A stretch of DNA of 37,265 bases from a virus (taxonomy: Duplodnaviria; Heunggongvirae; Uroviricota; Caudoviricetes). Shown here piece by piece: positions 22,690 to 24,646 of this stretch. The stretch's first letter is position 1. Each line of letters opens with the position of its first letter. Position numbers and translations under genes: made by a program. The notes beneath the pieces are model-generated. The model ran no database searches. It worked only from the letters and a program-made list of their open reading frames with translations, and had not been told where the DNA came from. The stretch lies in the IMG/VR virus record IMGVR_UViG_2731957842_000006; one strand, 5' to 3'.

Positions 22690-22718
22690 AAAAAAGGGCC
22701 GCCAGCGGCCCGTAAAAA
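22690..22718 (-). terminator. terminator-like hairpin (GGGCCG-CCAG-CGGCCC followed by T6 on the minus strand) just upstream of the holin
   Basis: GC stem with U-tract about 20 nt upstream of the holin start. Confidence 0.35.
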
Positions 22719-22794
22719 CACCCTGTCAAAGGCACCCGCAGATGCCTTTTGTGTGGTGTTATCTGATGTGATGTGCGCCGGGCGTGGCGCGGAT

Positions 22795-22860
22795 ATGAAA
22801 AAGGCCCGCCGGAGCGAGCCATAAAAAACTGAATAAAAAAAACCGCCAGGTGCGGCGGTT
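22795..22860 (-). repeat. copy A of a roughly 66-bp direct repeat carrying tandem hairpins and U-tracts (terminator 22831-22860)
   Basis: Near-identical to 23475-23537; minus strand AACCGCC-GCACCT-GGCGGTT followed by T9. Confidence 0.6.
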
Positions 22861-23112
22861 AAGGATGTATTTCCGGGCTTGGCTTAGTATATGACCAATC
22901 ACAGTTTTGTTTTTGTCGATGTTTACAACATCAGAATAATGCATTTAAAGTAGTAAAAATATTTGCTAATAATGCATTATTCCGATGGTGTAAAAAATGG
23001 CACTGGAACCGCAACGAATATCACTCATTACAGAACAGGGGGCGCAAGGAACCATAAAAAACACCCTACATATATTATGTCAGTGCCTAACACAATCTCG
23101 CCTTAGTTACTG

Positions 23113-23187
23113 TTGAGCGGGCAGCGGGAATCGAACCCGCATCATCAGCTTGGAAGGCTAAGGTAATAGCCATTATACGATGCCCGC
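23113..23187 (-). tRNA. tRNA-Gly(UCC)-like, no encoded CCA (3' end reads T-CAA)
   Basis: Cloverleaf readable by hand: acceptor GCGGGCA/TGCCCGC, anticodon loop CTTCCAA, T-arm GCGGG-TTCGATT-CCCGC; appears (from memory) near-identical to E. coli glyT. Confidence 0.5.
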
Positions 23188-23474
23188 ATACTGTGCTGGC
23201 CCCCGGAATAACACGAATTACCAAGAGAGCCCGCACTGGTCTTTCCGGTGGCAAACAGCACCCCTGCTAACATAAAAGATAAACACCTTCCAGACGCAAA
23301 AATACTAACAACTGTTTTTCAGATATCCAAAATATATTTGGTTTTTATTTTTGAAAATATGTATACATATGTATCATAAATATACAAGCCATATCATAAC
23401 CGAATTAAAAATCTTTAGTTATCTCTTTTGCCGTCTGATCACCACCCACCGGCAGCTGAGAATTCCGGCACACA

Positions 23475-23537
23475 ATGAAAAAGGCCCGCCAGGGCGAGCC
23501 ATAAAAACTGAATAAAAAAACCGCCCGGGGCGGCGGC
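23475..23537 (-). repeat. copy B of the roughly 66-bp repeat with terminator hairpin (CCGCC-CGG-GGCGG plus T-run, 23512-23536)
   Basis: Direct repeat of 22795-22860 at high identity; located downstream of the tRNA-like pseudogene. Confidence 0.6.
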
Positions 23538-23902
23538 TAAAACGATAAAAGGACACAATATTATAATGATTATTGGGTTTGGGGCATCGGGTGCCTCCCG
23601 AAGTATTCCACTTTACGTGGATACTGTGGTTTCCCGCTAAACCGACTCTATAAACCACCCTCGCACTGAGGAACGCCCCAATTCATGTTTTCCGACACAG
23701 AGATGGCGCATCACTGGTTACTCCACGCTAAATCCTGCTTCCTTTCGTGGGCAATGCGCCATTTCTGTGTCATAAAAAATACAGCACTGAGTCTGTAACC
23801 GATCTCCATTACAGAATGAGGGACGATAAAGGTATTAAAGAGATCTGTTCCTCACGAAAACCGCCAGTGCTGTAAAAACTTGTCCAAAAAACAATGAAGT
23901 TG

Positions 23903-23976
23903 CGGAGAACAGGAATCGAACCGGCATTACCAACCTAAGGCTGATGTAATAACCACTATACGATACCTGCATATAG
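23903..23976 (-). pseudogene. degenerate tRNA-Gly-like sequence (acceptor and anticodon stems do not pair)
   Basis: Shares D-arm and T-loop (GGTTCGATTCC) with the tRNA at 23113-23187 but the anticodon arm is rearranged and acceptor halves are not complementary. Confidence 0.3.
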
Positions 23977-24491
23977 AGCAGGCCTCCGTAACCACAATAA
24001 TGACACTGATACCGATAACAGCCCTTCATTATGATTAAACGGATGCCAGCAATGACCCGCAAGACAGCGGGTAACACCCCTGTGAACAGAAACTTGCTGC
24101 CTTTCGGGTCGAGAGTAATATTACCGATAATTTATATGACATCAAAAACTAATTAGTTTTCATATTTAAACATATGTATAAATATGTATCAGACGCATAC
24201 AATTTATGTTATTTCATCCAGACTTCTGATTTCTCACAGGAAATTGCGAAAAAAAACAACATAAAAATGAACAAATTGGGAGTACGCTAACTCCGTTGTC
24301 GCAATAAATCACAGTAAGCTCTTCAGAAATAACAGTTCACAAGACTTACATCAACAGTAGTTTTTGTAATGATTAATGTTAACTGTAGCGTTGAAAAGAA
24401 AAGTTTTGACGAAATATGGTGAACTAACAGAGCCTAACGAATAGCCCTATTACGCCGAGCTAATAGCGCTGCCAGCTAAACTTGCATGGAA

Positions 24492-24568
24492 TGGTCCGCC
24501 ACCGAGGACTCGAACCTCGCACAATCAACTTAGAAGGTTGATGCTCTATCCCGATGAGCTAGTGGCGG
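24492..24568 (-). tRNA. tRNA-Arg (anticodon UCU, reads AGA)
   Basis: Hand-folded 77-nt cloverleaf: acceptor CCGCCAC/GTGGCGG, anticodon arm TCAAC-CTTCTAA-GTTGA, T-arm CGAGG-TTCGAGT-CCTCG, encoded CCA. Confidence 0.85.
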
Positions 24569-24570
24569 AA

Positions 24571-24646
24571 TGGTGGCCCTTGCTGGATTTGAACCAGCGA
24601 CCTGGCGATTATGAGTCGCTCGCTCTCACCACTGAGCTAAAGGGCC
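24571..24646 (-). tRNA. tRNA with CAU anticodon, Ile2 (lysidine-type, reads AUA)-like; could alternatively be Met
   Basis: 76-nt cloverleaf GGCCCTT ... anticodon loop CTCATAA ... T-arm GCTGG-TTCAAAT-CCAGC ... AAGGGCC-A-CCA; resembles ileX-type tRNAs; 2 nt from the tRNA-Arg. Confidence 0.8.

Follow-up and report, generated by a model that had tools for sequence, protein, structure and literature searches.

Conserved structured RNA trailers in tRNA cassettes upstream of the lysis genes of an E. coli prophage

Analysis of a 37,265-nucleotide stretch of E. coli prophage DNA (IMG/VR record IMGVR_UViG_2731957842_000006; hereafter the window) demonstrated that the 250–390 nt running from a tRNA to a double terminator form a conserved structured RNA on the sense strand in both of two cassettes, A and B. 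tRNA genes in the interval between Q and the lysis genes of lambdoid phages are textbook cargo, and the flanking DNA usually receives no annotation and is regarded as spacer. The presumed spacer is composed here of three conserved, covarying RNA domains (D1, D2, and D3). They occur together with a phage-borne glyT copy, both in hundreds of E. coli genomes and on conjugative plasmids. The carriage of tRNAs ahead of the lysis genes is a known phage habit; the trailer domains D1–D3 are the new result and match none of the families in Rfam 15. A preliminary description of the region had offered structured RNAs as one explanation of its tRNA-like and terminator modules. This was borne out, but the structures are the three domains lying between the tRNA and the terminators, not those pieces themselves.

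The tRNA island lies entirely on the minus strand, 5′ of the lysis genes. Besides many terminators, it contains four tRNAs, three of them intact genes and one decayed. Along that strand, the order is tRNA-Ile2(CAU), tRNA-Arg(UCU), cassette B, cassette A, an extra terminator, and the holin gene (Table 1). The leader of the holin gene comprises a CA-rich tract (22774–22745), a hairpin (22747–22730), a strong terminator (22711–22696), a Shine-Dalgarno sequence, and the ATG at 22670, and it was found in most holin-anchored loci with any match, at ~80–100% identity over the aligned part. RefSeq and Pfam identified the downstream genes as the Phage_holin_8 holin, a second holin, and an M15 endolysin. 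As previously noted, no toxin gene follows the island, and the annotation of the window contains no stx there. Two small ORFs (23419–23658 and 23835–24077) were rejected as candidate genes; they have no Pfam match, overlap terminators or the pseudo-tRNA, and carry no RefSeq annotation.

This region probably represents the late-operon leader of a mosaic lambdoid prophage, ahead of its lysis and morphogenesis genes and loaded with tRNA cargo. The preliminary description had compared it with the interval between Q and the late genes of Stx-type phages. The island does lie 5′ of the lysis genes; a setting between Q and the late genes applies to relatives, but Q is not demonstrable in this window. 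Q is annotated 5′ of the island in relatives L002 (the ETEC1749 prophage, an inducible relative) and PhiR47_1, and a 231-aa ORF at the corresponding position in L051 and L075 is a putative Q. Upstream of the island, the window has a DUF1133 remnant and a 239-aa unknown ORF but no annotated Q gene, and this prophage might never undergo late read-through. The prophage hosting the island is probably defective.

Table 1. Features of the tRNA island and the adjoining holin gene, in minus-strand order (positions in the window)
Feature	Position	Strand	Basis
tRNA-Ile2 (anticodon CAU, ileX/ileZ-like), CCA encoded	24571..24646	-	ARAGORN; Rfam 72.5 bits; RefSeq tRNA-Ile
tRNA-Arg (anticodon UCU, argN-like), CCA encoded	24492..24568	-	ARAGORN; Rfam 57.8 bits; argN match
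Weak terminator-like hairpin 3′ of tRNA-Arg	24279..24294	-	consensus scan
Cassette B (contains decayed tRNA)	24202-23475	minus	
AT-rich upstream element, cassette B, near-palindrome ATATTTATACATAT	24143..24202	-	direct repeat; kept in 12 cassettes
Promoter-like pair, cassette B: -35 TTGATG 24145-24140, 16-nt spacer, -10 TAATAT 24123-24118	24118..24145	-	12-cassette alignment
Structured pre-tRNA leader, cassette B	23971..24117	-	aligns with cassette A leader
Decayed tRNA (pseudogene, glyT-bodied), cassette B	23901..23970	-	Rfam 31.8 bits; ARAGORN silent
D1 junction RNA and U-tract, cassette B	23774..23874	-	covariance model R1 52.7 bits, E 5e-10; fold; covariation
D2 long hairpin, cassette B, 27-nt arms, 42-nt apical part	23685..23780	-	inverted repeat; fold
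D3 five-way-junction RNA, cassette B only, core 23583-23677	23575..23685	-	covariance model R2 120.8 bits
Tandem intrinsic terminators, cassette B: 23538-23519, 23500-23483	23483..23538	-	consensus scan; repeat families
Cassette A (contains intact glyT-like tRNA-Gly(UCC))	23387-22795	minus	
AT-rich upstream element, cassette A, perfect palindrome ATATGTATACATAT	23328..23387	-	direct and inverted repeat
Promoter-like pair, cassette A: -35 TGGATA 23329-23324, 16-nt spacer, -10 TAGTAT 23307-23302	23302..23329	-	12-cassette alignment
Structured pre-tRNA leader, cassette A	23188..23301	-	cassette alignment
tRNA-Gly (UCC), glyT-like, cassette A	23115..23187	-	ARAGORN; Rfam 61.6 bits; stems checked
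D1 four-way junction and U-tract, cassette A	22990..23090	-	R1 95.3 bits; fold
D2 long hairpin, cassette A, 24-nt arms	22919..22997	-	inverted repeat, 92% complementary; fold
Tandem intrinsic terminators, cassette A: 22860-22841, 22820-22803	22803..22860	-	consensus scan; repeats
Holin 5′ leader	22671..22790	-	terminator consensus scan; alignment of holin-anchored loci
Holin gene (Phage_holin_8), lysis cassette gene 1	22278..22670	-	Pfam 76.7 bits; PHROG 198 holin; RefSeq

The adjacent Ile2(CAU) and Arg(UCU) genes, separated by a 2-nt spacer on one strand, are both intact and of the ileZ/argN type of Stx phages, in agreement with the preliminary description. The pair shares 92.5% identity over 159 nt with ileZ/argN annotated in many Stx2 phage records. 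Both genes were called by ARAGORN and score as genuine tRNAs, with Rfam scores exceeding the gathering score of the tRNA family (RF00005, 29 bits). As in the ileZ-argN(-argO) arrangement of Stx lambdoid phages (933W type), the pair lies on the late strand 5′ of the lysis genes and decodes the rare codons AUA and AGA. Unlike that arrangement, the window has no argO (ARAGORN and RefSeq gave no further Arg tRNA in the region), no stx, and no directly upstream Q, and the pair is followed by ~1.8 kb more of tRNA cassettes.

The remaining two tRNAs had been described as one glyT-like gene without encoded CCA and one degenerate copy, and both points were confirmed. All stems, the anticodon, and the U73 discriminator of the tRNA-Gly(UCC) of cassette A are intact. 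Its 3′ end reads ...GCCCGCT-CAA, compared to ...GCCCGCT-CCA in most homologues, indicating a 1-nt deletion; CCA is not encoded, so maturation would need the CCA-adding enzyme. To our knowledge, all E. coli tRNA genes encode CCA, and this sequence is still a tRNA-Gly whose sole missing item is the host-like encoded CCA. The decayed tRNA of cassette B has two acceptor-stem mismatches and one T-stem mismatch, a shortened anticodon arm, and no CCA. An intact relative in L050, whose anticodon is UCU, is 80% identical to it over an alignment covering 66 of 70 nt; the cassette B copy is best read as a pseudogene. The tRNA located 5′ of the trailers varies among relatives, being either a Gly tRNA with anticodon UCC or a Gly body with a UCU or UUU anticodon; the sources of these UCU and UUU variants include L050 and the IncF plasmid pWY517IncF.

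Cassettes A and B (about 640 and 780 nt) align end to end, so the two modules with dual-hairpin terminators recognized earlier are real and homologous over their full length. Each is composed of an AT-rich element, a sigma-70-like promoter site, a folded leader, a tRNA, a folded 3′ trailer, and two tandem terminators. Identity between the cassettes was 78% over 60 nt for the AT-rich elements, 77% over 31 nt for the tRNAs, and 83–89% for the double terminators (22795–22862 vs. 23475–23540). The AT-rich motif that had been called promoter-like is present in both modules but is not the promoter; it adjoins a conserved −35/−10-like pair immediately downstream. Across 12 aligned cassettes, these hexamers are conserved and the spacer between them is fixed at 16 nt with a variable sequence. 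The sites fit 8 of 12 consensus positions by hand count and were missed by the consensus scan because its threshold was 9 of 12. Identity of the cassette promoter with the late promoter PR′ was considered and rejected because the gene just 5′ of the AT element is not Q; among the 12 cassettes, it is a DNA methyltransferase, an AraC-like regulator, or another cassette. Paired segments of the leader covary between the cassettes (GACCCG..GGCAGC/GCTGTC..CGGGTC vs. GGTCT..GGTGG/CCACC..AGACC). The consensus scan identified 11 terminator-like sites, all on the minus strand, compared to 3.2 ± 1.4 in shuffled sequences.

The trailers themselves were characterized by folding, covariance models, and covariation. 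D1 is a four-way junction closed by an invariant GCACUG/CAGUGC helix and followed by a U-tract; the junction normally has three inner hairpins, of which two fold in cassette B. The closing helix measured 7–11 bp and was directly followed by 5–8 U in all 22 sequences (22/22). Compensated changes were observed at 13 of 24 D1 pairs, compared to 8.4 ± 1.2 after shuffling, and none of 500 shuffles reached 13. Plain MAFFT alignment with RNAalifold recovered only 15 D1 pairs because the helices are out of register with one another, and MAFFT undid an N-padded alignment; therefore, a covariance model (R1) was used for D1. The training set of R1 left out the sequence type of the cassette B D1. The conserved helix of D2 is 22 bp, extending up to ~30 bp in single sequences, and 8 of its 22 pairs are compensated. 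In D3, whose conserved loops are UUCGGGAGGCACCCGA and GGUUUAGCGGGAAA, 15 of 29 pairs are compensated against 6.0 ± 1.5 in shuffled alignments (0/500 shuffles reached 15). The compensatory changes in the three domains were seen across dozens of prophages. Fold z-scores of the trailers were −5.15 and −4.92. In 29 of 29 sequences, the sense strand had the more stable fold, by a mean of 19.5 kcal/mol over the antisense strand, usually with a larger number of G-U pairs, and all R1 and R2 matches with E ≤ 0.01 were on the tRNA/holin strand.

We consider it likely that the cassettes are self-contained tRNA units decoding AUA, AGA, and GGA, with terminators that shield the holin gene. In the lysogen, every cassette would be transcribed from its own promoter, and host tRNA-processing enzymes would excise the tRNA. 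Transcription would end either at the U-tract of D1 or at one of the double terminators, and the lethal holin gene would therefore stay silent. Upon induction, antiterminated polymerase from upstream would pass all eight terminator-like signals. RNase III might plausibly cut the long D2 helix and thereby part the tRNA from the lysis mRNA. The tRNAs, including the tRNA-Gly(UCC) of cassette A once CCA is added post-transcriptionally, would supply decoders of AUA, AGA, and GGA, codons used far more by the prophage than by the host. We infer transcription, processing, termination efficiency, and the benefit to the phage from the layout of the cassettes. If the trailers serve in stopping or processing only, the island would show how constitutively expressed phage cargo can sit a few hundred bases 5′ of a lethal holin gene.

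Several observations fit the tRNA-unit explanation less well. The promoter-like sites are below the scan threshold, as described above. As a terminator, D1 would hold an ~85-nt, three-hairpin insert as its “loop,” which is beyond the usual definition of an intrinsic terminator and beyond the consensus scan, and a junction that opens 90 nt 5′ of the U-tract is an unusual shape. A role in termination or processing also leaves unexplained the invariant D1 helix, the conserved D3 loops, and the trailer of cassette B, in which D1–D2–D3 is complete and the tRNA is dead.

Codon usage was compared between the late genes of the prophage and 45 core genes of the same strain. The frequencies per 1000 codons were 10.9 vs. 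3.4 for ATA (odds ratio, 3.2), 5.8 vs. 1.0 for AGA (odds ratio, 6.1), and 16.7 vs. 7.5 for GGA (odds ratio, 2.3), with p < 1e-8 for each. An enrichment of AGA and AUA in late genes, which the preliminary description had proposed to check, was found, but it is not specific to late genes. The early prophage genes are enriched too, and so are codons without a cognate phage tRNA here, such as AGG and CGA, which counts against the tRNA-unit explanation. Because of this, the enrichment may reflect the low G + C content (47.4%) rather than selection.

The features that the tRNA-unit explanation leaves aside could also mean that the trailers are functional non-coding RNAs, with the tRNA perhaps acting as their delivery and processing handle; we regard this as possible but doubtful. 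In shape, D1 is a four-way cloverleaf; D3 is a five-way one whose arms are ordered as in a tRNA with a long variable arm. Released from the tRNA transcript as stable molecules, they might conceivably mimic tRNAs, acting as decoys toward defence nucleases that cleave tRNA or toward enzymes that bind it, or they might work as protein-binding RNAs or base-pairing regulators, although shape is the whole basis of the decoy idea. A function of their own is suggested by the strong covariation together with the invariant D1 helix and D3 loops, by the retention of D1–D2–D3 in cassette B despite the decay of its tRNA, by the maintenance of the unit on conjugative IncF plasmids, and by the variation of the preceding tRNA. 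In L042, L056, and L067, D1 with D3 downstream is found with no tRNA called at that position, and D1 stands without a callable tRNA in 6 of 38 D3-anchored contexts. However, D3 is missing from cassette A, whose tRNA is the live one in this window, and some functional phages (PhiR47_1) have the same tRNA-Gly without D1. The Rfam scan and the Pas BLAST search also gave no similarity to described RNAs that would hint at a mechanism. We tentatively raise, as the less probable case, that D1 and D3 are two new cloverleaf RNA families with their own function, travelling with glyT-derived tRNAs on E. coli mobile elements, and that the variable tRNA is part of the same system. Should they have an action of their own, they would constitute a new tRNA-linked RNA class among the regulators, and possible anti-defence factors, that prophages encode in E. 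coli, whether pathogenic or commensal. The covariance models R1 and R2 make the question of the role of D1 and D3 directly testable.

Two Rfam scans of the region, one with the gathering-score cutoff and one with E ≤ 5, returned only tRNA, sok, and chance-level matches; D1, D2, and D3 matched no family of Rfam 15 at either setting. An Rfam search for sRNAs had been suggested in the preliminary description, and none of a known family was found at the gathering score. It is very unlikely that the region represents the known prophage sRNAs of “moron” sites (AgvB/AsxR, Pas, STnc100, and Esr41), although its location invites the comparison. AgvB/AsxR-type sRNAs are encoded downstream of PR′, with moron genes on one side and a conserved phage ORF on the other (PMC4104026). 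Other prophage sRNAs directly adjoin the holin/lysozyme operon, and within 10 kb on either side of PasA and PasC, tRNA is the most frequent Rfam match (bioRxiv 10.64898/2026.05.13.724894). The STnc100 model also matched weakly over the cassette A terminators (18.6 bits vs. a gathering score of 47), and ~24 nt in the 3′ half of PasA resemble the pre-tRNA leader by eye, a likeness that was lost in shuffling controls. The AgvB, AsxR, and Esr41 models gave no Rfam match even at E ≤ 5. PasA, PasC, and PasD2 of E2348/69 (coordinates from PMC8550237 table S6) had no significant BLAST match in the window, and local alignment of the PasA region with the cassettes scored within the shuffled range. AgvB/AsxR and PasA–D share with D1–D3 the Q-to-lysis neighbourhood and a tendency to go unannotated (PMC4104026; PMC8550237; bioRxiv 10.64898/2026.05.13.724894), but they are mostly short hairpin sRNAs of about 50–85 nt (PasD, about 170 nt) without homology to D1–D3. 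AsxR, PasA, and PasC are antisense to late genes, whereas D1–D3 are sense-strand multi-junction folds tied to a tRNA.

Other known systems resemble the cassettes in part. GOLLD and ROOL are large covarying Rfam RNAs of unknown function that are typically found by tRNA genes in prophages and were described outside enterobacteria. D1–D3 are likewise elaborate covarying RNAs beside prophage tRNA genes, but the hosts differ and the domains are much smaller (about 100 nt each). Neither GOLLD nor ROOL was matched in two Rfam scans of the region, insofar as both models are in the library copy. The 3′ETS-leuZ of E. coli is a short base-pairing sponge RNA from the 3′ spacer of a tRNA operon. It occupies the interval separating the last tRNA from the operon terminator, as does D1 with its U-tract, and is freed by tRNA processing, as D1 would be; D1, D2, and D3 differ in being large multi-helix folds. 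Morons, as summarized from Juhala et al. (2000) in PMC4104026, are promoter-gene-terminator units in the lambdoid late region. By that summary, the cassettes are similar as self-contained units with a promoter-like site and terminators, present or absent among related phages and located at the classic insertion site downstream of PR′. They differ in that their cargo is a tRNA and structured RNA, not a protein gene, and in that their expression in the lysogen is a prediction.

The cassettes are portable. Of 5426 E. coli genomes, 290 contained D3, and none of the sites among the matches listed carried an RNA annotation; the cassette B trailer was present in only two records of the deposited phage collection. 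A 16-mer scan of genome contigs for cassette sequence yielded chance matches in unrelated phyla only. In the D3-anchored sample, D1 was present in 36 of 38 distinct contexts and a tRNA-Gly just upstream in 31. The tRNA–D1–D2–D3 unit also occurs on IncF plasmids; one such plasmid unit has no Q gene annotated within 3.5 kb. The 80 prophages sharing the holin have none, one, or two cassettes, shuffled in many combinations, and cassettes also precede a different holin, essD.

tRNA genes are common integration sites, and the two modules in the window are directly adjacent with the same order of parts. The preliminary description had proposed module duplication or att-site scars. A recent in-place tandem duplication, or functionless att scars left by tRNA-gene integration, is nevertheless hardly credible here. 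The cassettes are only ~70% alike and many indels apart. Cassette B stands alone in other prophages at 87–100% identity, cassette A-like trailers occur alone elsewhere at only ~70–80%, and the stacked two-cassette form was found in only 4 of 5426 E. coli genomes. Lysogens with the exact locus of the window include VG48B2, RM11911, RM13745, and RM13752. The att-scar reading was rejected because the degenerate tRNA is a full-length homologue inside the late region, not a 3′ fragment, and no integrase adjoins it. Cassettes A and B are old paralogues stacked by recombination, and recombinant joints are found inside cassettes, for example, at GCACTG in L010.

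The preliminary description of the island was correct in its observations and largely right in its interpretation. As phage cargo, the tRNA island is of a known and ordinary kind, and the conserved structured trailers on its Gly-type tRNA are the part that deserves follow-up. Every feature of the island lies on the minus strand, and the transcription order runs from 24646 to 22670. Scored with the Rfam tRNA model (gathering score, 29 bits), the Arg and Ile tRNAs reported earlier, both called by ARAGORN, proved genuine. RefSeq annotates the CAU tRNA as tRNA-Ile at the identical locus of E. 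coli VG48B2, where tRNA-Gly is the sole annotation between tRNA-Arg and the holin gene. The Ile gene and the Arg gene each encode CCA and as a pair share 92.5% identity with ileZ/argN from many Stx2 phages, in line with the Stx-phage type proposed for them. The glyT-like tRNA-Gly lacks an encoded CCA, as described, its 3′ end reading GCCCGCT-CAA instead of the GCCCGCT-CCA of most homologues, a one-base deletion.

Features of the tRNA island and its surroundings in the window; bits of tRNA genes refer to the Rfam tRNA model
Feature	Position	Strand	Description
sok antisense RNA	26663-26837	minus	Rfam RF01794, 117.7 bits; hokD adjoining
239-aa ORF	24787-25506	minus	PHROG 1521 (unknown function); directly upstream of tRNA-Ile
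tRNA(CAU)	24646-24571	minus	ARAGORN; 72.5 bits
tRNA-Arg(UCU)	24568-24492	minus	ARAGORN; 57.8 bits
Cassette B	24202-23475	minus	holds the decayed tRNA
Fourth, borderline tRNA match	23970-23901	minus	31.8 bits
D1	23774-23874 (B), 22990-23090 (A)	minus	four-way junction, invariant GCACUG/CAGUGC closing helix, then U-run
D2	23685-23780 (B), 22919-22997 (A)	minus	long near-perfect hairpin
D3	23575-23685 (B only)	minus	five-way junction, conserved loops
Cassette A	23387-22795	minus	holds tRNA-Gly(UCC)
Pre-tRNA leader	23188-23301	minus	
tRNA-Gly(UCC)	23187-23115	minus	ARAGORN; 61.6 bits
CA-rich tract	22745-22774	minus	holin 5′ leader
Holin (Phage_holin_8)	ATG at 22670	minus	downstream of the island
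Acb1-family pseudogene	~15512-16696		incomplete; RefSeq label

The fourth match, which lacks CCA, is related to the Gly gene over its full length, and its degeneracy was confirmed by two acceptor-stem mismatches, one T-stem mismatch and a shortened anticodon arm. Its closest intact relative is the tRNA of the prophage locus L050, which has a glyT body and a UCU anticodon. Therefore, the window copy is best regarded as a pseudogene of this lineage, and the suggestion of an att-site scar was rejected. Non-Gly anticodons on the glyT body (acceptor stem, T arm and U73), a lineage of which the window copy is a decayed member, were UCU at L050 3373-3448 and UUU at 3203-3276 of L212, a locus of the IncF plasmid pWY517IncF. 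A glyT body with a UCU anticodon is reminiscent of the classical glyT missense suppressors. Approximately 1402 nt upstream of the holin gene in the related locus L064, a chimeric tRNA gene with an Arg-like 5′ half and a Gly-like 3′ half has its joint in the anticodon stem, indicating that neighbouring tRNA genes recombine.

Codon use was compared between 28 late-strand ORFs and 45 core genes of the same strain. ATA was used 10.9 times per 1000 in the late set and 3.4 in the core set (odds ratio, 3.2), AGA 5.8 and 1.0 times (6.1), and GGA 16.7 and 7.5 times (2.3), with p < 1e-8 for each. The AGA/AUA enrichment anticipated for the late genes was thus present and is consistent with the classical role of phage tRNAs in codon supply, but it was non-specific, extending to early genes and to AGG and CGA and matching the lower G + C content (47.4%).

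A repeat search and pairwise alignment bore out the two modules described, each comprising an AT-rich element, a tRNA and a 66-bp double terminator; the units aligned end to end (23420-22780 vs. 24240-23460) and are referred to as cassettes A and B. Eleven terminator-like sites were observed, all on the minus strand, against 3.2 ± 1.4 expected. Just 4 of the 5426 complete E. coli genomes contained the whole 2.2-kb region. Among 80 holin-anchored viral contigs, the island before this holin was a mosaic of Ile2, Arg, Lys, Thr, Gly and Val tRNA combinations with zero, one or two cassettes. Cassette B stood alone elsewhere at 87–100% identity (e.g., L002, L006 and L051), as did cassette A-like trailers at approximately 70–80%, and locus L010 was a recombinant whose joint coincides exactly with the invariant GCACTG in D1, a folded domain of the trailer. 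Together with the L064 recombinant, these sequence relationships indicate that the stacked pair arose by recombination between prophages. A recent origin for the module duplication put forward earlier was rejected on the same grounds. The L010 D1 (3549-3662) is identical to the window cassette B type (23874-23774) up to GCACTG and to the L007 type beyond; the conserved helix doubles there as a recombination joint.

The stretches between the cassette tRNA and the double terminator folded much better than shuffled sequence (z-scores, −5.15 in cassette A and −4.92 in cassette B), and their paired segments co-varied in an alignment of divergent loci, so that structured RNA, one of the readings offered in the preliminary description, could be resolved here into three domains, D1, D2 and D3, with covariation statistics computed on related sequences. 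Single-sequence folds of D1 gave the same three-hairpin topology in 17 of 20 distinct sequences; the remaining three, including the cassette B copy of the window, were without the small first hairpin. A covariance model trained on ten cassette A-like and L007-like sequences recovered types absent from its training set, namely that of cassette B (52.7 bits) and more distant ones, and all its matches at E ≤ 0.01 lay on the tRNA/holin strand, though the closing helix is palindromic. In 34 distinct D1 sequences, 88% of cells paired, and two-sided changes occurred in 13 of 24 pairs compared with 8.4 ± 1.2 in shuffles (0/500 reached the observed value) and 1–10 in a slid-partner control; this alignment was model-fitted and so biased towards structure, and the single-sequence folds, obtained independently, gave a concordant picture. 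For D2, 19 variants in a plain MAFFT alignment gave a predicted 22-bp helix with eight compensated pairs and many G-U pairs. A plain alignment of 17 D3 sequences showed 97% of cells pairing and 7 compensated pairs vs. 3.2 ± 1.2 (1/500), and the D3 model alignment of 25 distinct sequences showed 97.6% and 15 of 29 pairs vs. 6.0 ± 1.5 (0/500). The predicted fold of the sense strand was more stable than that of the antisense strand in 29/29 trailers, by a mean of 19.5 kcal/mol, and used more G-U pairs in 28/29, which points to RNA from the tRNA strand rather than a DNA-level feature.

Of the 5426 complete E. coli genomes, 290 contained D3-like sequence, as did 120 plasmids of PLSDB; every one of these plasmids came from Escherichia, and 108 were predicted to be conjugative. 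In a second sample of 38 distinct contexts, anchored on a 23-nt D3 core, D1 lay ≤330 nt upstream in 36 and tRNA-Gly(UCC) within 420 nt in 31. Therefore, the canonical unit is a glyT-like tRNA followed by D1, D2, D3 and a terminator; compared with this unit, cassette B has lost its tRNA and cassette A is without D3. Plasmid pWY517IncF carries, in order, a tRNA with a Gly body and UUU anticodon, D1, D2, D3, one terminator and a DMT transporter gene. The cassette unit also precedes another holin gene, essD, in a DLP12-like prophage, and tRNA-Gly occurs without D1 in some functional phages (PhiR47_1). The 120 plasmids with the D3 unit are mostly conjugative IncF (e.g., loci L211, L212 and L087), with an adjoining AraC/HTH-type regulator gene; in the prophage loci L027 and L050, too, an AraC-like ORF lies ahead of the cassette. 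D1 with D3 downstream and no tRNA called at that position was found at L042 2516-2803, L056 2709-2996 and L067 2067-2376, upstream of a complete tRNA-Thr/Gly unit, showing that tRNA-less trailer arrays exist; the L042 and L056 D1 are short variants with only 18 bits in the D1 model.

The Rfam search for sRNAs proposed earlier gave no match for D1, D2 or D3 even at E ≤ 5 (Rfam 15). Published work maps several sRNA families to this neighbourhood: the anti-sRNAs AgvB and AsxR are sited 3′ of the late promoter PR′ (PMC4104026), and Pas sRNAs adjoin holin/lysozyme operons (PMC8550237; bioRxiv 10.64898/2026.05.13.724894); PasA, PasC and PasD2 extracted from E2348/69 showed no significant similarity to the window. 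Among the matches listed, no RNA feature was annotated at the match sites. As far as the present evidence goes, none of the motifs D1, D2 and D3 has been described before.

In an alignment of 12 cassettes, TTGATG (TGGATA in cassette A) was conserved and TA(G/A)TAT invariant, 16 nt apart, with a spacer constant in length and variable in sequence. This promoter-like pair lies just downstream of the AT-rich element, which bears a ATATGTATACATAT palindrome, and it was not listed by a simple promoter scan because it matches 8 of 12 consensus positions. The gene ahead of the AT-rich element varies by locus (DNA methyltransferase, AraC-like regulator or another cassette) and is never that of the late antiterminator Q, which is suggestive, not proof, of a promoter belonging to the cassette rather than the late promoter. 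In the pre-tRNA leader of the window and its L012 equivalent, the motifs CAGUGCUGGC and GCCAGCAC are mutually pairable and resemble the D1 closing helix. GCCAGCAC lies inside a PasA segment marked as target-complementary (PMC8550237 fig. S5); the leader–PasA resemblance was not statistically significant.

From its sequence organization, the region is probably a late-operon leader with tRNA cargo, in which the Gly-type cargo would be packaged as autonomous units, each comprising a promoter, a leader, a tRNA, a folded trailer and a double terminator. In a lysogen, the units would make tRNA, with the terminator run preventing polymerase from entering the holin gene; once the prophage is induced, polymerase in its antiterminated form would pass the terminators. 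RNase III could plausibly cut at the long D2 helix, and the D1 U-tract is a plausible first stop. A pure stop-and-process role leaves unexplained why the D1 helix is invariant, why the loops of D3 are conserved and why a complete trailer is kept behind a dead tRNA; therefore, an independent function of D1 and D3, which we consider rather unlikely, is kept as a serious rival. Because both are cloverleaf-shaped, a role as tRNA mimic or decoy would be an obvious idea. As for the late-operon leader, no Q gene is annotated upstream of the island in the window, so late read-through may be absent in this prophage.

The first holin gene is followed by a second holin gene and an M15 endolysin gene, and a DUF1133 gene remnant and hokD with sok also lie upstream of the island. 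The 239-aa ORF had no Pfam match and PHROG 1521 as its one match; it is hydrophobic-looking, and its position is taken by Q or a DNA methyltransferase in relatives. The early genes and the island flank the sok/hokD interval, for which RefSeq gives only the DUF1133 remnant, without Q. Beside the terminase genes, the RefSeq annotation (locus L001) labels a pseudogene as “anti-CBASS protein Acb1 family.” The holin 5′ leader has the CA-rich tract ACAUCACAUCAGAUAACACCACACAAAAGG, followed by a hairpin and, just ~13 nt ahead of the Shine-Dalgarno sequence, a strong terminator; it matched no known RNA family, and its layout resembles that of an Hfq-type sRNA. The unit ACACCAGAAA is repeated two to three times in the equivalent holin leaders of loci L016, L023 and L028.
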